Shown here piece after piece: positions 15,152-24,949 of a stretch of 64,000 nucleotides of DNA. This DNA is from Chloroflexota bacterium (lineage in GTDB: Bacteria > Chloroflexota > UBA11872 > VXOZ01). The position numbers were made by a program, and so were the translations under genes. Numbering within the stretch: position 1 is the stretch's first letter; the number at the start of each line of letters is the position of its first letter. The stretch lies in NCBI GenBank assembly GCA_964291655.2, contig OZ219802.1, positions 256,001 through 320,000 on the forward strand. The letters run 5' to 3'. The notes under the pieces are model-generated. The model made no database searches and was not told the DNA's origin. It saw nothing but the letters and a program-made list of their open reading frames with translations.

Positions 15152-16662
15152 CACTCAGCCTCCTGGGTGCGGACAGGTGGAAAGAGTATGACATCACGAA
15201 TCGAGGCGCTGTTCGTAAAGAGCATGGCCATGCGGTCGATGCCGATACCAATGCCGCCGGTTGGGGGCATGCCGTACTCCAACGCCGTGAGAAAGTCTTC
15301 ATCGAGGGGCTGCGCCTCTTCATCCCCGGCTGCGCGCTCCTTCACTTGCTCTTCAAGTCGCTGGCGTTGGTCAAGGGGATCATTGAGTTCGCTGAAGGCA
15401 TTGGCAATTTCCAGGCCGCCTACAAACGCCTCGAATCGTTCGACAAGGCGGGGATCGTCTTCTCTGCGCTTGGCCAGCGGCGAAAGCGCTACGGGATAAT
15501 CCAGCAGCAAGGTTGGCTGCATGAGTGTTGGCTCCACACATTCGGCCAAGAGTTCATCTACAAGTGTAGACCACGTAATGCGCTCCGGCACGCCGATGCC
15601 GCGTGATTGTACCTGCGCAAGCAGCGCATCGGTGTCAGGGTACGCGTAAATGTCGATGCCGGTTGCGGACTCGATGGCCTCATGCAGTTTGATGCGCTGC
15701 CACGGCCGCGTAAAGTCCAGTGTTTCATTACCGTATGGCATCTGTGGCGAACCATGGACGGCCAGGGCAACTCGGTAGTAGAGCTCTTCAAGGAGTGACA
15801 TCATGTCGGAATAGTCGGCATATGCCTGGTACGCTTCCAACATGGTGAACTCGGGGTTGTGGTCGCGGTCCATGCCCTCATTGCGAAACGTGCGGCCAAT
15901 TTCATAGACGCGCTCGAATCCGCCTATGAGGCAGCGCTTGAGATAAAGCTCCGTGGCGATTCGCAGGTAGAAGTCCTGGTCGAGGGCGTTGTGGTGCGTG
16001 ATGAACGGGCGGGCAAAAGCGCCGCCGTAGAGCGGCTGGAGCACCGGAGTCTCTACTTCCAGGTAGTCGCGCGCGTCAAAGAATGCGCGCACCTCCCGCA
16101 CCACGTGGCTGCGCTGCTTGAACGTGTGCCGCACTTCAGGATTGGCGGCCAGGTCCAAATAGCGCTGGCGCAGGCGTGTCTCAGTATCCCGTAGACCATG
16201 ATACTTTTCCGGTGGGTTTTGCAGTGCCTTGGCAAGCATGACGATGCGGTGGACCTCTAGGGTCGCCTCGCCGGTGCGGGTGCGGAACAGCACGCCTTCT
16301 GCGCCGATAATGTCGCCGAGGTCATACTGGTCTACGACCGTCGCATAAGACTCATCGCCAAGGATGTTGAGGCGGAGATAGAGCTGGATGCTGCCGGAAG
16401 CGTCGTTGATGTGAGCAAACGCCGCCTTACCCATCTTGCGCACCGTATGGATGCGACCCGCGAGGCGAACAGTCTCCTTTGCTGTAGAGAGCGATTCAAA
16501 GGAGTCGAGTGCAGCGTGCGCCGTGTGGGTGCGATGAAAGCGCAGGGGATACGGATCAATGCCCTTTTCGCGCAAGGCATTGAGCTTGCGGAGGCGGAAG
16601 TCAACTGGCGACTGGCGTGAGCGATCCGCGTCTTTAACGAAGTCTGACGATTCCGTAGCTAT
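15151..16662 (-). CDS. lysS: Lysyl-tRNA synthetase class II; start uncertain (ATA 16662/ACG 16656, first canonical TTG 16575)
   Basis: 'RQRYLDL', '[11 protein letters not shown]', 'FRNEG', 'HNPEFTMLE', '[15 protein letters not shown]'. Confidence 0.95.
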
Positions 16663-17123
16663 TTTACCTCTTGAATCGTATAAGTCAGCGTGCCGGCGGG
16701 CACTTCGACGGTTACCCGATCACCGATACGGTGACCCATCAAGGCATGGCCTACCGGGCTCTCATTTGATATGCGGTTTTCCAGGGGATCGGATTCCGGT
16801 GCACCGACAATGGTAAATGTCTCGCTATTGCCGTCACCATCCGTGACGATGACCGTTGCTCCCAAATCAACCTCGGCACTGGCATGGTGTTCAGAGACCA
16901 CCGCATCGCGGAGAATGTGCTCGATCTCTATAATGCGGCCTTCCACGAAGGCCTGCTCTTGCTTGGCCTCGTTGTATTCGCCCATATCGGAGAGATCTCC
17001 GCCAAATTCCATCGCCTCATGGATCCGCAGGACGATTTCAGGACGTCGTACGGTCCTAAGTTGCGCTAGCTCTTGGCGAAGCTTGTCTCTGCCTTCAGGC
17101 GTCAGCATATGCTGCTCCGCCAT
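16659..17123 (-). CDS. greA: Transcription elongation factor GreA
   Basis: 'LTPEG', 'GDLSDMGEYNEAK', 'ISNESPVGHALMG', 'VPAG'; AGGAGG RBS. Confidence 0.95.
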   Translation of the reverse strand: MAEQHMLTPEGRDKLRQELAQLRTVRRPEIVLRIHEAMEFGGDLSDMGEYNEAKQEQAFVEGRIIEIEHILRDAVVSEHHASAEVDLGATVIVTDGDGNSETFTIVGAPESDPLENRISNESPVGHALMGHRIGDRVTVEVPAGTLTYTIQEVK

Positions 17124-17312
17124 GACCACACCCTCCTATAAAAGAATATGACGGAAAAGAGGCTATCCACTGGTCGCTCTTTTCCAGTCACCCCAATAAT
17201 AACAGGTTCAACTGTCGCCGGTCAACGGTCAGCCGGGCGCGGTTGGAACAAGGAAGCTTGGCTGCAGATCTCCGCCTGCCGGGACTGCTACTTGTGGTGC
17301 GCCGACGCCTTT

Positions 17313-17339
17313 TGTCACTCCGAGCGCAGCGAGGAGTCT
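17313..17339 (+). repeat. REP element (GTCAYTCCGAGCG family)
   Basis: TGTCACTCCGAGCGCAGCGAGGAGTCT, same family as the element at 13556. Confidence 0.6.
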
Positions 17340-17390
17340 AATGTTAGTCGGACACCAGTAGAAGTACCGAGCCAACAGGTGGGAGTACTT

Positions 17391-18005
17391 CCTCTCCCCT
17401 CGGAGACCTTTGCATAACCCACGCCAGCGCGAGAAAGTCCCCTCTCCCGGCGGAGAACGTTGCGAAACCCAAACGAAAGCGAGAGTGCTCCCTCTCCCTC
17501 GACGGAGACCTTTGCATAACCCCACTTTCAAGCAGGGGCACTCCCTCTCCTGGGGGAGAGGGTTGGGGTGAGGGGGCCTTTTTGCTACGATGGCCCTTTG
17601 CGTTGTGCAGTGTCAAGACGTATCAGGGCAGAATCGGTGTGCATGTGGAGAGATTTCAGGAGATTCACCCTCACCCTAGCCCTCTCCCGTCGAGGGAGAG
17701 GGAACTATTTCGCTACCGCTTGAGTTGCGCAAAGGTCTCCGGCGGGAGAGGGAGAAGTTCTTGCACCTCCGGCCGTGGTTATACCAAGGTCTCCCCATGG
17801 AGAGGGAAAGACAGATTTACTTCAGGAATTAGATACGCAATGGTCTCCGTCTAGGGAGAGTGAAGCCTCTCGCTTCCGCAAAGGCTGTGCAAGAGCTTCC
17901 TTTAAAGGAGATGGTATTTCCTTACTGCCACTAGAGTTTCGCAATGGGTTTCCGTCAAGAGAGAACAAGCTCTCTCGCTGCGGCGATGGTTGTGCCAAAG
18001 TCTCC
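17391..18005. repeat. Inverted REP doublet with two outward-running tandem arrays (3 x ~50 bp left, 6 x 52-54 bp right)
   Basis: Left units at 17391/17441/17491 CCTCTCCC-n-GGAGACCTTTGCATAACCC; full REPs 17543-17575 and 17668-17702; right units (GGTTRYGCAAAGGTCTCC-n-GGAGAGGG) with motif ends at 17740, 17794, 17848, 17900, 17953, 18005. Confidence 0.8.
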
Positions 18006-18141
18006 GCGAGCGCGCTCCGCTAGGTTTTCTCCCGTTATTCGACCCTAAAGGGCGGCGCCGGCCGGAGAATACCGCGACCCGCACCGGTACGGGCGTCGAA
18101 CGCGAGTCACTGCCCTCATGCGTCCTCATTTATTGATCTGT

Positions 18142-18243
18142 GCATTAGATGCTCCCAATACAGTCTGTATCATCATCTGATGTTCTCGCATTAGATGCTT
18201 TTCATATCGTCTGTATCTACATCAGATGGGTATACATTAGATG
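18142..18243. promoter_or_regulatory. 46-bp-period array of palindromic sites (putative operators)
   Basis: CATTAGATG at 18143/18189/18235; CATCWGATG at 18174/18220; ATACAGTCTGTAT at 18158 and variant at 18204. Confidence 0.65.
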
Positions 18244-18291
18244 TGTTCCATAATTCTTGTCCCAAAAACACTAAAAATAGCAGAAATCCTC

Positions 18292-18320
18292 TTTACAATC
18301 GTTGCTATATCATATATTGT
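18292..18320 (+). promoter_or_regulatory. Candidate sigma70 promoter of the adhesin gene
   Basis: TTTACA-17 bp-TATTGT in an AT-rich tract. Confidence 0.35.
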
Positions 18321-18370
18321 ATCTGCTTAGAGTAAGGCAAGGGCAAAGACATCCCAAGTAGCAAGGCGTA

Positions 18371-21300
18371 GTGAAAGGGTTTATGTTGAGTAGGTTGAAG
18401 CACATCAAGCAACGGATCATGCGAGGAAAGGCGGCGATCTACGGATCCGCCATCGTAGTCATGCTGGCGCTGTCGCTCGTGCTGCAGGCCAGCGCAGTCT
18501 CGGCGCAAGCGCCGTCGGCGTCAACCGTGGAATCGACGCAGGCGTCGGACGCGACTCCTGAACCTACACCTGAACCCACACCTGAGGCCACACCAGAACC
18601 TACACCGGAACCAACTCCGCAACCAACTCCTGAGGCAACGCCGGAACCTACACCGGAACCCACGCCGGAGCCGCAGGTTACCGTCCCGGGCGCGCCCAGC
18701 GGATTAAGCGTCTCCACCAGCCGCGGTTCGCTGAGCGCGTCCGTGTCTTGGAGCGAAGTCTCCGGCGCAAGCCGTTACTCAGTCCGCTGGCGCAAAGCCG
18801 GCGCCGGCAATACGCTCAATGCCGGATCGGGAACCCGATCCACCAGCACCAGCATCAGCGTCGCCGGTTATAGCGACTGGGTGGTGCGCGTGGAAGCCTG
18901 TAACGCCGCAGGCTGCGGATCGGCCGCCGCGCAGAGATTCACCGTCGCGCCGGCCCCCACACCGGAACCCACACCTGAGCCTACTCCCGAATCTACGCCG
19001 GAACCAACGCCGGAACCGGAAAATGAACAAGAGCAGCAGAACGATGGGTCGCTACAGGTCGCCGTCGCAGCCAATCGCACCAATCCGCGGGTCGGCCAAG
19101 CAGTGACCCTGTCTGCGTTCATCGCAAACGCTCCCGCAGACTCCAGTCCTTCATACAGATGGCAGATGAAAAACGGTGGCGGCTGGATTTCCTGGGGAGG
19201 CGGCGCTACCTTTAGCTATCAGGCCGCAGCCCCTGAAGTTTGGACGTTTAGAGTCGTGGTCTCCTATGCTTCCGGCGTTTCACTTTCGTCGGGCTCGGTG
19301 ACCGTTGCCTGGTCCGAGGCCACGGCTGTTTCGGATCCTCCCCCTGTCACCTCTAGATCCACCATCGGCAACACAACGCCGCGGCGCACCGGCGACTTGA
19401 CCCCTCCAAATCCCGCGTCGTGGGGAGGCAATTCCACTTTTGATCTCGATAAAATCTTCACGGATGACAATGGCGACGACCTGACCTACACGGTCTCTGC
19501 CCAGCACCCCGGCCTGCTCGGCGCCAGCGTGTCAGGTTCTACCCTCAGTTTGAACTACCGCAATCCCGGCACATCGCAACTGACTATTACGGCCGATGAC
19601 GGCTACTACTTCGGGAAAGTCACGTACACTGTCTCCGTCAAAATTAGCGGGCACAGTACCCTGAGCGTCGCGGAGAATGCGGCCGCAGGCACCGTGGTGG
19701 GGACAGTGACCGGAAATCCCTATAGCGGCGAGACGCTGAGCTATTCCCTATCAGGTGATGCGGCTGGGCTTTTCGACATCGACTCGACAACCGGCCAAAT
19801 CACTGTCTCCTCGGGTGGACTACTGGAGGTCGGCACGGTAACGGGGACGGTGAACTATACCGTGAATAGTGTGTCGGTATCCGTTGACCTCACGGTCAAT
19901 GTGACAGCAGGGCCGCCGGCCGACATTACCCTGAGCGTAAGCCCGAGCTCATTCAACGAGGGTGCTTCTACCGCCAGCGTTACGGTTACGGCTAAACGCG
20001 CCGGCACGTCTGGCGCGGTGGCAGTCAAAGTGTCAACTTCGGGAGGCACGGCTACCGATGTTTCCGACTTTACCACGTGGTCTTTTCCAACGATGACAAT
20101 CGCTGACGGCAGTACCTCTGGAACGGCAACCCTGAAATTTCTCGTCCAGGATGACAATCTCGTGGAAGGAGACGAAACAATCACCGTGTTGGGCACGGCC
20201 ACCGGTCTGGTCGTCGGCAGTACCTCCACTAAAATCATCGACAATGACGTCGCGGTGCCCGATATTACCCTCAGCGTGAGCCGGTCCTCATTTGGCGAGG
20301 CCGATGAGGACATCCAAATTGTGGTCACGGCCACCCGCGCCAGCGGCGCCGATGAAAGCGATGCGGTGAGGATTTCCCTCTCGCTGGCGGGCACCGCCAC
20401 CGATGACACGGATTATTCCGTGTCCGGCAGGCACTCGATTACCATCGACACGGGCTTAACCAGCGAGACAACGACCTTGACCTTCGACGGCGTGGACGAC
20501 ACGCTCGTTGAAGGGGACGAGACCATCACCATAGAGGGGACGGCCGCTGACAACACCGTGAAAGGCACTGTGGTTACCCTCATCGACAACGAGGACGCTT
20601 CCGTATTTACGCCGGGCACTCCGACGCTCACCCGCACGACGTATAGCCAGAGTTCGAAACCGGGTCTAGACGTCAGTTGGACAGCCCCGACGAATACGAA
20701 CATCTCCGGGTACGAGGCGCAGTACCGCAAACAAGGGGCCACAGCGTGGACGGCATACAGCGGCGCCTTGTCCGCAACGACCACAAGTCTCACCATTACG
20801 GGCCTGGAATACGGCGCCACTTATGAGGCGCAAGTACGCGCCCTCATCAGCGGCGGGGGCGAGGGCCCGTGGTCAGACACCGGATCGGGCCGGGCCAATC
20901 AGCAGCCCACCATCATTATCAACAATGCCATTTCCAATCAGAGTATTGGCGTTGGCGGCACTTCCACGATCGGCAGCGCCCTCTCAGAGGTGTTCACCGA
21001 CAACGACGGCGACACCTTGACGTATGGCGCCTCTGTGGAACACCTGGGCATACTCTGGGCCAGCGCATCCAGCGGTTCGCTCTCGGTTCAGGCGTATAAT
21101 CCGAGCGCAACGACGGTTACCTACAGCGCGCGTGACGCGTATGGCGGCTACGCCTACTCCTCCTTACGAGTATCGGCCACGGCGTCCGCGACCCGCAGCG
21201 TGCCGCCTGGCTCCGTCGCGGGCACAAAAGTGGGCGCGCCGGTGACGGGGCGGCCCTACGGGGGCCAGGCGTTGAGCTACTCTCTGACGGGAGAAGCCGC

Positions 21301-24300
21301 CAACGCCTTCGTAATCGACTCTTCCACCGGCCAGATCAGCGTGAAAACAGGAGCCAAGCTGAACGCTGCGACCAAGCCCTCCTACTCGGGCAGTGTGAAC
21401 TGGACCGTGCAGGGCCAGTCGGCAAGCGTTAGCCTCACGATCAAGGTGTTCGACTCGAAGGCGAAGCCGCCCAAACTCGCCGCAGCGCTGACCCAGTCCC
21501 CAAGCGAACCCACTGCCGCGCTCCTCCTGACTTGGACTCCGCCCGACATGACCGGCAAGCATCCGGTGACCAGTTACAACGTACAGTACAGACCTCCAGG
21601 TCAACTACATTATATTTGGATTGACGTTGATGCCTCTGCGGACCGCACACGCGTAGGGTTACGGGGATCACACGTAGATCTGAAGCCAAACACGACATAC
21701 GAGGTCCAAGTGCGCGCCAAGAACAAGGCTGGACCGGGCCCATGGACGACCCTCTCAGCCACCACGGCGGCAAAGACCGACATCACCCTGAGCGTAAGTC
21801 CGAGCACTTTCGACGAGAGCGCTAATGCCGCCAGCGTCGCGGTTACGGCAACCCGCACCGGCACGTCCGGCGCGGTGACCGTAAACCTATCGACCCAGGG
21901 AGGCACGGCCACCGCCGGCGCCGACTATACGGCGTGGACCTCTCAAACGGTGACGATCGCTGATGGCAGTACCTCCGGTACGGCGAACCTGACCTTCACC
22001 GCCGTGGACGACACGGAGGTGGAGGGAAACGAGACTGTTACCGTGGTGGGGACGGCCACCGGCAAGACCGTCCGCGGCACCGAAATCACCATTACTGACA
22101 ACGACAAAGCGCTCGACATCACTCTGAGCGTGAGCCCGAGTTCGTTTGACGAGCCCGATCAGGATGTCGATATTGTGGTTACGGCCACCCGCACCGGCAC
22201 GTCCGGCGCGGTGACCGTTACCCTCTCGCTGGGGGGCACGGCCACCGCTACCACCGACTACACCATGTCCGGCACGAAGTCGATTACGATCGCGGCAGGT
22301 GCTACCAGCGGAGACACGACCCTGACCTTCGACGGCGTGGATGACAATGTTGTGGAAAGAGACAAGACCATCACCGTGTCGGGCACTGCCCCCAGCCTGA
22401 ACGTCGGCAGCGCCGACATTACTATCATGGACGACGATGAATACACCGACGCCGAATTGAAGCCGGGCACGCCGACGCTCGCTCGCACCACGTTCAGCCA
22501 GCCGTCCAACCCGGCTTTGGACGTGTCCTGGACGGCCCCCACGGCTGCCGACCTGAACATCTCCAACTACAAGGTGCGATACCGGAAGCAGGGCGCGGCG
22601 GGCTGGACTTCAAACACCAGCGCGGTGACGACAACGAGCGTCAACCTACCGAATCTGACAGCCGGCGCCACCTATGAGGTGCAAGTGCGGGCCGTCAACA
22701 GCGACGGGGGCGAGGGCCCCTGGTCCGACACCGGATCAGGCAAAGCCAACAACCCGCCGCGCACCCTTGGCTATATCTCGAGCACGACGATTCGGTGGGG
22801 TCACGCCGTCAATCGTGACATTACAATCCACTTTCCTGACCCCGACAGCGACACGCTGACCTACTCGGCCAGCGCGGCCAATGCCAACGTGATCAATGTC
22901 ACGATCAATGGAGCAAAGTTGAACGTGACTCCCAATGCTAACGGCCAATCCAAAATGACCTACGGCGCCCGGGACGACTACGGCGGGTACGCTGAATTGA
23001 CGACGACCTATTTTGTCCCCTCCAAGGGCGAGACGCGCAAAATCGCGGAGAACTCCCCCGCGGGCACAACAGTGGGCAATCGGATGCCGTGGTACCCCGC
23101 GGGCGGAAATGAGCTAATCCCTGTCCTGACCGGAGACGTAGCGACAGCCTTCACCATCTCGTCCAAGGGTTGGTTCAGTGTAAAGGCAGGCGCGAACCTC
23201 GACTACGAGACCCAGGATTCCTACAGCGGGCAGATAGCTTACAAGGTCAAGTCACAAACCGCCTTTTCAATTCCCCTCACCATCAAGATTACCGACGTGG
23301 ATCCGCCCGGCAGGCCCGATGCGCCAAAGGCAGCGCAATCTTCAGGGAACCCCACGAAAGCGCTGGACGTGAGTTGGGAAGCGCCCACGGACAACGAGCC
23401 AATCGACGGGTATAACGTGCGGTACCGTATGTTTGAGGACACGGACTGGACAGCGTCCGACTTCAGTGGAGCCGGCACGTCAACCACTCTGAGCGGTCTG
23501 GTGCCAGACACATCCTATAGAGTGCAAGTGCGCGCATTCAATGTCGAGGGCAATGGCCCCTGGTCGGATTTGGGCACGGGGAAGACTGCTATTCAAAAGT
23601 CCGAAACGACAGTGGTCACGCCGGCGCCCACACCGATACCGACACCGGTCTTGTTAGACCCACCGGATGCGCCTGGCGGACTTAGCGCCCAGTGCGCGGA
23701 TCCCGTCACCATCACGGTGAGTTGGAACGCGGTTGAAGGCGCCGACGGCTATGAATTCGGCATCTGGATCGGCAGCGGCTGGCAGGACGAATTCGTAATC
23801 GGCACGACCGCCATGCGTGGTGGGCTGGACCAGAATACCCGCTACAACGTCCGGGTACGCGCCCGCGGCGACGGTCAGACACGCGCCGGGTGGAGCCAGT
23901 ATCAGTTGGGCGGGGAGGACACGTCGAACTGCGCGTCCACGCCGCCACTGGCGCCGGTACCCACGCCGGAACCGACGCCGGAGCCCGAGCCAACGCCGGA
24001 GCCTGAGCAAACGCCGGAGCCGACGCCGGAGCCACAGCCTGAAGTGATTCAGCAGCCGACGCCGATTCCCGTACCAACGGCTGTGCCAACGCCAGACCCA
24101 ACGGTTACACCAGCGCCGGATTCGACACCTGCGCCGCAGCCTGAATCTTCACAGCCAACGACACCGCAGGCGACGCCAGTGCCCGGAATAACGGCTACGC
24201 CAGCGCCGGATTCGACACCGACGCCGGTACCGCCGAAGGTGGTTGGGCCCATCACGCCACCGTCCAACACCAATCCCAGCGACGACGCCGGGCCGCCGGC

Positions 24301-24949
24301 CCCGCCCCCAGCGCAGACGACTTCGAGCGATAACGCGAGAAGTAGTCTCACTGGGATCGTCAACGACCCGAATGCCATTCCCGCCATAGTGGGTGTGGGA
24401 CTGCTCGGAATTCTCTTTACGACACTCGCCGCACAGTACTTCGGCTTGCTCAGCATTCTCGAGGCACTCATGGGCGAAACGCGGCGCGCGCTGCAATTGA
24501 CGGTGCAGTCGCTGCTTCCGAGCGGGACCGGACCTCTCGCTCTCTTCTCACTGTTGGGCTTCTTGTTGCTGCCTTTCTTGTGGAGGAGACGCCGCCGTCG
24601 CGCGCCGGCTGCGCCACGGGTAACCCGGTCGGACTCCGATCCCATGCACGCGCTTGACGTGGCCTGGGACGGCCCGTCCGGTAACGGTACGCGCTATGAC
24701 GTGCAGTACCGTGCGCCGGGCAGGGACTGGATTGACTATGCCCGCACGAATCTGACCTGGATCGAACTCTCGGCTTTGGAGCCGGGCGAGAGGTACAGCG
24801 TGCGGATCCGCGTGCGAGGCGGGGACGTCGGTCCCTGGTCTGCAGCCGGCATCGGCAACACCGACGGGGAGGGTGACAGTGACAAAGTTGCCGTCGGCCT
24901 ACCGCAACTCCGCACCCGCAACGACGCGGGCACGAGTTTCGGGGACTGA
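18371..24949 (+). CDS. Giant surface adhesin-like protein with FN3, cadherin-like, Calx-beta/Ig-like domains and Pro-Thr-Glu linkers
   Basis: Signal peptide (..QASAVSAQ); EPTP repeats; multiple FN3 (LDVSWTAP..YxVxYR..YEVQVRA..GPWS); cadherin 'AENSPAGTTVG..LDYETQDSY'; 4x 'DITLSVS..F.E..GGTAT..DD..VE'; C-terminal hydrophobic segments. Start may be ATG 18383 or 18419. Confidence 0.88.
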   Translation: MKGFMLSRLKHIKQRIMRGKAAIYGSAIVVMLALSLVLQASAVSAQAPSASTVESTQASDATPEPTPEPTPEATPEPTPEPTPQPTPEATPEPTPEPTPEPQVTVPGAPSGLSVSTSRGSLSASVSWSEVSGASRYSVRWRKAGAGNTLNAGSGTRSTSTSISVAGYSDWVVRVEACNAAGCGSAAAQRFTVAPAPTPEPTPEPTPESTPEPTPEPENEQEQQNDGSLQVAVAANRTNPRVGQAVTLSAFIANAPADSSPSYRWQMKNGGGWISWGGGATFSYQAAAPEVWTFRVVVSYASGVSLSSGSVTVAWSEATAVSDPPPVTSRSTIGNTTPRRTGDLTPPNPASWGGNSTFDLDKIFTDDNGDDLTYTVSAQHPGLLGASVSGSTLSLNYRNPGTSQLTITADDGYYFGKVTYTVSVKISGHSTLSVAENAAAGTVVGTVTGNPYSGETLSYSLSGDAAGLFDIDSTTGQITVSSGGLLEVGTVTGTVNYTVNSVSVSVDLTVNVTAGPPADITLSVSPSSFNEGASTASVTVTAKRAGTSGAVAVKVSTSGGTATDVSDFTTWSFPTMTIADGSTSGTATLKFLVQDDNLVEGDETITVLGTATGLVVGSTSTKIIDNDVAVPDITLSVSRSSFGEADEDIQIVVTATRASGADESDAVRISLSLAGTATDDTDYSVSGRHSITIDTGLTSETTTLTFDGVDDTLVEGDETITIEGTAADNTVKGTVVTLIDNEDASVFTPGTPTLTRTTYSQSSKPGLDVSWTAPTNTNISGYEAQYRKQGATAWTAYSGALSATTTSLTITGLEYGATYEAQVRALISGGGEGPWSDTGSGRANQQPTIIINNAISNQSIGVGGTSTIGSALSEVFTDNDGDTLTYGASVEHLGILWASASSGSLSVQAYNPSATTVTYSARDAYGGYAYSSLRVSATASATRSVPPGSVAGTKVGAPVTGRPYGGQALSYSLTGEAANAFVIDSSTGQISVKTGAKLNAATKPSYSGSVNWTVQGQSASVSLTIKVFDSKAKPPKLAAALTQSPSEPTAALLLTWTPPDMTGKHPVTSYNVQYRPPGQLHYIWIDVDASADRTRVGLRGSHVDLKPNTTYEVQVRAKNKAGPGPWTTLSATTAAKTDITLSVSPSTFDESANAASVAVTATRTGTSGAVTVNLSTQGGTATAGADYTAWTSQTVTIADGSTSGTANLTFTAVDDTEVEGNETVTVVGTATGKTVRGTEITITDNDKALDITLSVSPSSFDEPDQDVDIVVTATRTGTSGAVTVTLSLGGTATATTDYTMSGTKSITIAAGATSGDTTLTFDGVDDNVVERDKTITVSGTAPSLNVGSADITIMDDDEYTDAELKPGTPTLARTTFSQPSNPALDVSWTAPTAADLNISNYKVRYRKQGAAGWTSNTSAVTTTSVNLPNLTAGATYEVQVRAVNSDGGEGPWSDTGSGKANNPPRTLGYISSTTIRWGHAVNRDITIHFPDPDSDTLTYSASAANANVINVTINGAKLNVTPNANGQSKMTYGARDDYGGYAELTTTYFVPSKGETRKIAENSPAGTTVGNRMPWYPAGGNELIPVLTGDVATAFTISSKGWFSVKAGANLDYETQDSYSGQIAYKVKSQTAFSIPLTIKITDVDPPGRPDAPKAAQSSGNPTKALDVSWEAPTDNEPIDGYNVRYRMFEDTDWTASDFSGAGTSTTLSGLVPDTSYRVQVRAFNVEGNGPWSDLGTGKTAIQKSETTVVTPAPTPIPTPVLLDPPDAPGGLSAQCADPVTITVSWNAVEGADGYEFGIWIGSGWQDEFVIGTTAMRGGLDQNTRYNVRVRARGDGQTRAGWSQYQLGGEDTSNCASTPPLAPVPTPEPTPEPEPTPEPEQTPEPTPEPQPEVIQQPTPIPVPTAVPTPDPTVTPAPDSTPAPQPESSQPTTPQATPVPGITATPAPDSTPTPVPPKVVGPITPPSNTNPSDDAGPPAPPPAQTTSSDNARSSLTGIVNDPNAIPAIVGVGLLGILFTTLAAQYFGLLSILEALMGETRRALQLTVQSLLPSGTGPLALFSLLGFLLLPFLWRRRRRRAPAAPRVTRSDSDPMHALDVAWDGPSGNGTRYDVQYRAPGRDWIDYARTNLTWIELSALEPGERYSVRIRVRGGDVGPWSAAGIGNTDGEGDSDKVAVGLPQLRTRNDAGTSFGD

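Follow-up and report, generated by a model that had tools for sequence, protein, structure and literature searches.

Within the 64,000-nucleotide stretch analysed here, referred to as the window (positions 256,001 to 320,000 of contig OZ219802.1, forward strand, Chloroflexota bacterium assembly GCA_964291655.2), positions 17391-18005 carry two mirror-image arrays of ~50-bp units set around a pair of hairpins of the repetitive extragenic palindromic (REP) type. The locus is nested transposon debris and not a new array-building system: the array very probably represents the piled-up ends of miniature transposable elements with inverted repeats (MITEs) of the IS5 family, accumulated by repeated nested insertion into a hairpin loop. 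The studied genome measures 3.47 Mb, with 59% G+C and a completeness of 97.55%, and its closest relative (G008) has flanks that are ~96% identical. Throughout the text, the 18-mer denotes the terminal inverted repeat GGAGACCTTTGCATAACC, while the arms of the REP hairpin are CCCTCTCCC on the left and GGGAGAGGG on the right.

Two full hairpins lie ~90 bp apart in opposite orientation between the left and the right unit series, at the coordinates given by an initial annotation made from the DNA letters. The one at 17543-17575 reads CCCTCTCC-tggg-GGAGAGGG followed by tt-GGGGTGAGGGG, and the inverted one at 17668-17702 reads CCCTCACCC-tag-CCCTCTCCC-gtcga-GGGAGAGGG. Every left unit consists of CCCTCTCCC as left arm, then a short loop, then GGAGACCTTTGCATAACC (exact or varied) and ~20 nt. 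A profile hidden Markov model (HMM), trained on 227 units of the genome that lie outside this locus, recovers exactly the three left and six mirrored right units of the initial annotation: three on the + strand (47.2, 41.8 and 43.0 bits, 17390-17552) and six on the - strand (46.5, 29.0, 13.6, 17.1, 7.8 and 22.5 bits, 17693-18009), against a top score of 6.4 in 20 shuffles. The profile finds no units further left or beyond these nine, and a fourth left unit at 17350-17390, proposed by eye, went undetected and was dropped. The right arm degenerates outward, as had been noticed, through GGGAGAGGG, GGAGAGGG, GGGAGAGtG, GGAGAtGG and GAGAGAa, and each junction re-forms a small hairpin, TCTCC-loop-GGAGA. 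Tandem Repeats Finder (TRF) reports the left array alone, with a period of 50 and 2.6 copies. Contigs from four public runs (two samples of one study, possibly the source of the assembly) match 16900-17518 and 17712-18500 without difference, so the assembly of this record did not create the two arrays. In these runs, whose contigs collapse the inner MITE and are uninformative on missing variants, a shorter array spanned by a single contig was not seen.

The repeated motif of the units is the end of a transposon. GAGACCTTTGCA / GGAGACCTTTGCATAACC is an IS5-family terminal inverted repeat: in Table 2 of PMC4596501, the end of ISNme1, an IS5-family element of Neisseria, is given as GAGACCTTTGCAAAA, and close variants are given for ISPg1-type elements and their MITEs. 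The initial annotation had matched the motif to IS1106-type elements of the IS5 family, which is right in substance; the table names ISNme1. Genome-wide, the 18-mer has 158 matches at up to two mismatches (0 for the backwards control) and 330 at up to four (26 for the reversed motif), and 232 ends are counted at up to three. At this last threshold the window contains five matches where 0.04 are expected, all five of them in this locus. Convergent pairs of 18-mers bound elements of 100 bp (3), 141 bp (15) and 236-238 bp (14), which are MITEs with inverted-repeat ends: they are small, lack coding capacity, occur in many copies and end in inverted repeats like those of IS5-family insertion sequences (IS).

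Transposase-bearing elements with the same ends exist in relatives, where the 18-mer bounds elements of 1219-1227 bp coding for a DDE_Tnp_1 and DUF772 transposase. An example is a 1227-bp element in G034, whose 325-aa protein matches DDE_Tnp_1 at 7e-29 and DUF772 at 7e-26. Among the 16 same-genus genomes, 8 have homologues of the transposase at 68-71% identity, with a 320-aa transposase for the same-genus copy (L148 or L149), and other families of the class have homologues too; the 18-mer is found in 16/16 same-genus genomes, in 12/13 genomes of two other families and in 0/11 of the remaining three families. Pairs of 18-mers lying 0.5-2.8 kb apart are all 237-bp-type MITEs holding a second element, which is a 1265-bp IS481-like IS, its 288-bp derivative or a 1644-bp IS1182-like IS. 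We also considered the 18-mer as the end of the bracketed 1.5-1.9-kb elements and rejected this, as the inserted IS481-like and IS1182-like elements have ends of their own and sit in the hairpin loop.

The target of these elements can be read from their flanks. Pairing the ends like brackets gives 100 stack-matched pairs, and an exact direct repeat of 3-6 nt abuts both ends in 44 of them (34 repeats of 3 nt, five of 4, four of 5 and one of 6). By the 3-nt test applied to the control, 34 of the 100 pairs match, where 1000 trials of shuffled pairing produced 3.3 matches on average and 11 at most. CC...GG brackets 36 of the 44 duplications, most often as CTCCC|GGGAG, and CTCTCC lies within 16 nt outside the end at 173 of the 232 ends. 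The 18-mer element sits in the loop of CTCCC-N(3-6)-GGGAG and duplicates the loop at any loop length; if the element's first G and last C are part of the duplication, as they could be, it would measure 5-8 nt, with the same dependence on the loop. A target-site duplication, as expected of an IS5-family MITE, is present, though its length is not fixed, which is unusual. REP-like hairpins are abundant in the studied genome, with 168 intact copies and 839 arms compared with 90 for a permuted control, and the usual loop of the CCCTCTCCC-type hairpin is TCGAC. The notion that any hairpin is a target was rejected for this genome: 135 hairpins of the type ATTCCSGS-loop-SCSGGAAT were counted and 0 of them abut an 18-mer, 13 being located 5 nt inside the left end of a 141-bp MITE. 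In another family of the class, the IS lies in the loops of ATTCCCGCG...CGCGGGAAT hairpins (L146 of G038, 1397-2673; L147 of G020, 1302-2577).

Three unrelated families use the one hairpin of the studied genome, namely the 18-mer MITEs, an IS1182-like and an IS481-like element. The IS1182-like element (1644 bp, e.g. C2:569219-570862), with 25 transposase copies of identical score, occupies the 4-nt loop in 22/22 paired copies, in both orientations and 12 times with an exact 4-nt repeat; the flanks of several copies suggest recombination between copies. The IS481-like element (1265 bp with a 397-aa rve protein, e.g. C2:1034135-1035399) has a deletion derivative of 287-289 bp (e.g. C2:409478-409765). 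Nearly all of the 67 paired copies of this family lie in the CCCTCTCC...GGAGAGGG hairpin, with two exceptions by eye, and its duplication covers 5-6 nt at the arm-loop border.

Besides inserting into the hairpin, the MITEs bring it along. Those of 100 and 237 bp carry their own target hairpin 21-22 nt inside their ends, so that later copies come to lie within earlier ones. Of the 168 hairpins that are intact, 81 stand exactly 21-22 nt from an end and 52 more than 300 nt from any 18-mer, and CCTCTCC is found 14-36 nt inside 173 of the 232 ends. Among adjacent ends at most 300 bp apart, 23 are ++ and 27 -- (mostly 49-54 bp apart), 51 are +- (all at least 82 bp apart) and 10 are -+; these spacing classes fit nested insertion into a hairpin-bearing MITE. 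A comparison with the closest relative shows such an insertion directly. At C1:690279-690911, an outer 100-bp MITE with the duplication ATA has its hairpin intact in G008, whereas in the studied genome a 526-bp element fills the same loop (C1:690326-690863), with TCAGAC on both sides. Presence and absence at orthologous sites, as expected of an IS5-family MITE, is also seen downstream of greA, where a 141-bp-type MITE lies ~100-270 nt past the conserved flank in G015 (L025) and is absent at GCCC-TTAG-GCAG in G013 and G002 (L022, L023). In G015, the autonomous IS is the innermost member of a +++- stack. The loop duplications and the pair of filled and empty hairpins bear out the earlier proposal that the REP loop is the target. 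Growth outward from an old REP doublet, which the same proposal assumed, has to be turned around: what looks like a doublet is the interior of a 237-bp MITE, the youngest element, and copies enter at the centre. Likewise, what had been described as REP arm, motif and spacer is really the end of a MITE, with its inverted repeat and ~20 subterminal nt, and next to it the half of a hairpin that the following insertion split.

The nested order is accompanied by a gradient in age. In 29 of 35 informative tandem pairs, pairs within an array not being independent, the inner unit matches a distant copy more closely than the outer unit does, and inner units are younger than outer ones. Together with the 330 genome-wide matches, this agrees with the earlier expectation of a recurrent architecture with an age gradient. 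In the window, the 38-39-nt ends L1 and R1 are 100% identical to many distant copies, L2, L3 and R2 are 86-93% identical to distant copies, the end is still recognisable in R3 and R6, and R4 and R5 are barely so. Stacks also lose and exchange units. At C2:2414265 the studied genome has ++-- and G008 has ++-, lacking exactly 50 nt between the tandem right ends. The missing stretch begins within the inner right end and stops at the equivalent point of the outer one; one unit was lost here by deletion between tandem ends. In G008 the inner left end belongs to a different subfamily, which shows exchange between copies, and the MITE ends are mosaic between the two genomes. The stack at C2:539270 is 95% conserved between them, while a fourth stack compared has the same flanks with different contents; at two further stacks the contigs of G008 end inside repeats. 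One-sided stacks such as +++-, +--- and ++++ are frequent.

These observations suggest the following mechanism. Elements ending in GGAGACCTTTGCATAACC integrate into the loop of CTCCC-N(3-6)-GGGAG, each strand being joined just 3' of its CTCCC, so that the whole loop is duplicated. The hairpin of a resident MITE offers a fresh target, and the next copy lands inside it; insertion into the single central hairpin of a 100-bp MITE places the new element between two copies of the loop, each followed outward by an arm, 20 nt and an end. Each insertion splits a hairpin and adds one ~50-bp unit of end, ~20 nt and half hairpin per side, and the outcome is mirror-image arrays with the youngest element in the centre, growing from there. 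Unequal sides and blurred duplications could result from deletion between tandem ends, from mobilisation by outer and inner ends, and from recombination between copies. We infer that the cut sites are set by the geometry of the hairpin. A wider reading is possible but tentative, namely that the lineage recognises the geometry of extruded hairpins besides sequence, each strand being joined where stem and loop meet for any loop size (a single type of element could then leave duplications of 3, 4, 5 and 6 nt), that its MITEs captured the target, and that the arrays called Neisseria intergenic mosaic elements (NIMEs) are the decayed product of the same process. ISNme1-type ends in dRS3-like hairpins of other Dehalococcoidia suggest a shared origin with the NIME arrays.

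Applied to the window, this mechanism allows a parse by layers, whose order of events we infer. The innermost and youngest is layer A (17504-17740, + strand), a complete 237-bp MITE recognised by its end matches and, as a whole, 94-96% identical to other copies. It comprises L1 (17504-17542), the hairpin at 17543-17575, a core (17576-17667), the hairpin at 17668-17702 and R1 (17703-17740), and it would be seated in the TCGAC loop of layer B. The hairpin of layer B, split by the innermost element, leaves its left arm CCCTCTCCC and loop TCGAC at 17490-17503 (+ strand, from sequence reading). Layer B itself would be L2 (17452-17489, + strand, 41.8 bits), a left end made of GGAGAACGTTGCGAAACC and 20 nt with the other end missing, which shares ~92% identity with units from the right ends of other 237-bp-type MITEs; either its right end was lost, or L2 and the MITE moved as a composite using L2 and R1 as ends. 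GGC at 17449-17451 and 17741-17743 brackets L2 plus the 237-bp MITE. The left copy closes the segment at 17440-17451 (+ strand), the left arm CCCTCTCCC of the layer C hairpin with loop GGC, and the right copy, belonging to the layer B duplication, opens the segment at 17741-17752 (+ strand), which continues with the right arm GGGAGAGGG of that hairpin.

Layer C would pair L3 with R2. L3, its left end (17402-17439, + strand, 47.2 bits), has an exact GGAGACCTTTGCATAACC and 20 subterminal nt; R2, its right end (17753-17794, - strand, 29.0 bits), consists of 24 subterminal nt and an inverted repeat with two mismatches. Outside L3, positions 17391-17401 (+ strand, from sequence reading and the HMM) hold the left arm CCTCTCCCC of a split REP hairpin and a loop remnant. 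On the other side follow the loop CCAT, the arm GGAGAGGG and unit R3 (17795-17848, - strand, 13.6 bits; inverted repeat at 17831-17848 with four mismatches), the right end of an older layer without a left partner. R4, R5 and R6 (17849-18005, - strand; 17.1, 7.8 and 22.5 bits, R6 with three mismatches) have decayed arms and belong to the oldest layers, of which the right ends alone are left. R3-R6 would be what remains on the right of older layers that have lost their left halves.

Several observations weigh against this account. A clean duplication is limited to 44 of the 100 matched pairs, and some flanks carry reverse-complementary triplets in place of direct ones, TCT/AGA at C2:2414315-2414551 and GCC/GGC at L148 1313-2537, which are unexplained. 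In the window, the innermost MITE by itself is flanked by TCGAC on the left side and by GGC on the right, and the flanks of layer C read CCTC and CCAT. The array is asymmetric, with three units against six and with left units of 42-47 bits against 8-23 bits for R3-R6; given this mismatch in score, a simple pairing of L3 with R3 fails and lost ends must be invoked. The scores on the right drop outward, though not strictly, as R6 stands above R3-R5. The array locus has no counterpart in the 15 same-genus loci, so its layers are not directly comparable. Finally, no cognate transposase was found in the studied genome or in G008: the relative's protein used as query gave no match in the former, where PF01609 together with PF05598 occurs solely in the 25 IS1182-like copies. 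Either the activity here belongs to the past, or a different enzyme drives it. As the initial annotation had it, a transposase must act in trans, since none was found in the genome, and the cognate enzyme does exist in relatives. Only about half of the positions are common to the ends of the 18-mer elements and the IS1182-like elements, judged by eye, and cross-mobilisation by the IS1182-like transposase is a conceivable alternative.

Other processes have been proposed for arrays of this appearance or could produce them. A site-specific recombinase might generate a NIME-like product by repeated exchange at hairpins, using chromosomal copies or incoming DNA and no true transposition. The resemblance to the dRS3/RS-filler arrays of Neisseria, for which the available text of PMC1797815 proposes a hairpin-specific recombinase, speaks for this, as do the half or so of end pairs without clean duplication and the mosaic MITE ends; since the inverted repeat starts with GGAGA, like the hairpin arm, a shared recombination core is conceivable. 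However, the ends belong to an element with a DDE transposase, flanking repeats are identical far above chance, and the empty and filled pair shows an insertion that is clean and has a copy of the loop at either end. A candidate recombinase was neither seen nor sought, and we regard this process as improbable. An ordinary minisatellite, in which a 50-bp unit was amplified by slippage or unequal crossing-over on either side of a MITE, would account for the regular 50-54-bp period and for the left array reported by TRF, and the 50-nt deletion in G008 illustrates that recombination does take place between direct repeats spaced by 50 bp. Against it, the best non-self match of all nine window units lies outside the locus, so that neighbours are not closest relatives and slippage is ruled out as the builder. 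Adjacent units moreover come from different subterminal families, and loop duplications bracket whole elements. The minisatellite is thus largely refuted and very unlikely.

It is likewise highly improbable that the array is a selected device in the intergenic region between greA and a giant adhesin gene, providing terminators, insulators or binding sites, with its transposon origin incidental. The position in a 1.24-kb divergent intergenic region, the small hairpin at each junction and the conserved stack at C2:539270 are compatible with such a role, but outer units decay and stacks vary freely between close relatives. An Rfam scan of 16000-19500 gave nothing at the gathering score (best Whalefall-1, 21.2 bits against a cut-off of 37), and promoter and terminator scans showed no excess over shuffles. 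We consider it extremely unlikely that the hairpins are REPINs spread by a REP-associated tyrosine transposase (RAYT), a Y1 transposase, with the 18-mer as part of the REPIN. The abundance of REP-like hairpins and the 52 copies remote from any 18-mer would agree with a RAYT, which the initial annotation had also raised. The single Y1_Tnp match (30.2 bits, C2:2523481-2523714), however, has no CCCTCTCCC hairpins beside it and a different palindrome instead. Y1 elements of the IS200/IS605 family have no inverted-repeat ends and make no target duplications, whereas the present elements have both. The Y1 gene (L144) is preceded by three tandem GGGCGGGACGCCCGC-type palindromes and followed by an inverted one, and may form a separate REP/RAYT system. 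An array of the CRISPR kind (clusters of short palindromic repeats at regular spacing) was rejected, because the repeats vary and are mirrored on two strands. The segments that had seemed spacer-like fall into recurrent families: 190 of the 232 segments inside ends belong to ten subterminal families, with neighbouring units in different ones.

The closest known systems share parts of this picture. The elements resemble ISNme1 of Neisseria and ISPg1-type IS5 elements of Porphyromonas and their MITEs (ATR, BrickBuilt) in the terminal motif and in the DDE_Tnp_1 and DUF772 transposase, here that of the relatives. They further resemble ATR and BrickBuilt, as these are described in the available text, as short non-coding derivatives with target duplications that are presumably mobilised in trans. 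Compared by description, ISNme1 and ISPg1 differ from the elements here, which have a specific hairpin-loop target and a loop-length duplication of 3-6 nt and whose MITEs carry the target and self-nest. REPs are established IS targets for the IS3, IS110, IS4, IS256 and IS5 families, the examples in the available text of PMC1525189 and PMC3184786 being IS1397 and ISKpn1 (IS3), ISPpu9, ISPpu10, ISPa11 and IS621 (IS110), ISRm22 (IS4) and ISNm1106 (IS5). As here, REP palindromes are insertion hot spots, and some of these IS insert at the palindrome axis (PMC1525189, PMC3184786). For ISNm1106 the survey lists only a loose association of "type 2", the element lying close to REPs and not within them (PMC1525189), in contrast to the present IS5-family lineage, which lies exactly in the loop. 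Unlike the REP-targeting IS as described there, the elements here form nested stacks of MITE ends, with three families on one hairpin.

In NIMEs, dRS3 hairpins flank RS fillers, and the arrays are attributed to a hypothetical recombinase; in the available part of PMC1797815 the authors state that such arrays were not seen outside Neisseria. Both systems consist of long intergenic arrays with short inverted-repeat hairpins and fillers of many families, 19-214 bp in NIMEs, and array length varies between strains (PMC1797815). The ATTCCCGCG...CGCGGGAAT hairpins, from two Dehalococcoidia genomes and associated with the same IS lineage, fit the published dRS3 pattern except for spacer length. In contrast to NIMEs as published, the window has another hairpin sequence, in another organism, and nested MITEs in place of a recombinase; the dRS3 pattern ATTCCC-N8-GGGAAT flanking RS is not what is found, the hairpin here being CCCTCTCCC...GGGAGAGGG. 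Bacterial interspersed mosaic elements (BIMEs) of enterobacteria likewise are intergenic clusters of REP hairpins in alternating orientation, but they combine REPs with linker motifs and are linked to RAYTs, whereas the hairpins here are split by transposon ends and have no RAYT associated. A literature search, with most subscription journals outside its reach, returned no description of nested MITEs in hairpin loops in Chloroflexi. What seems new is an IS5-family lineage placed precisely in the loop, duplication by loop length, self-nesting MITEs that carry their target and three families on one hairpin, as far as the sequences tell.

The array is found in a 1.24-kb divergent intergenic space between greA (16659-17129, - strand; Pfam GreA_GreB and GreA_GreB_N, with synteny) and the gene of a 2192-aa repeat protein (18371-24949, + strand; FN3, cadherin-like and Calx-beta matches). 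This open reading frame contains a Pro/Thr/Glu-rich repeat with a 12-nt period at 18560-18669. The immediate neighbours scanned are greA, aminoacyl-tRNA synthetases and the giant repeat protein. The flank common to all 15 same-genus loci (L013-L027) stops at 17229, 160 bp left of the array, which makes a rearrangement beside the array plausible. After greA these loci have a tRNA and a transporter or transporter-like gene (G008 and several others) or a different gene, and the giant repeat-protein gene follows greA in 0 of the 15 fetched. Directly left of the array, 17297-17344 holds a different hairpin repeat (around CACTCCGAGCGCAGCGAGGAGTC) with 141 short-BLAST matches genome-wide, a further REP-like family. 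Upstream of the giant gene, several CATTAGATG / CATCTGATG-type words at 18100-18250, one of which makes a 10-pair stem (18174-18197), look like an operator or regulatory repeat.

The association of hairpin and element extends beyond this genome. The exact junction of CCCTCTCCC, 3-5 nt and GGAGACCTTTGC occurs, among the matches listed, in many metagenome-assembled genomes of Chloroflexota and Dehalococcoidia and in records whose titles name Alphaproteobacteria (Rhodomicrobium, Bauldia, Hyphomicrobiales), metagenome-assembled "delta proteobacterium" genomes and Binataceae; the two travel together across phyla. An architecture that looks like CRISPR is explained here by ordinary transposition, which takes it off the lists of candidate new systems. 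It also offers a clean natural case of a transposon that carries its preferred target and thereby builds "Russian-doll" stacks with the youngest copy in the centre. In this sponge-associated Chloroflexota genome, one hairpin is the common landing pad for three unrelated transposase families, a safe-haven strategy that keeps hundreds of insertions out of genes. The dependence of the duplication on loop length hints, in a way that can be tested, that a DDE transposase chooses its target with guidance from structure, and the nested stacks provide a concrete hypothesis, which can be checked computationally, for the origin of the Neisseria NIME arrays.

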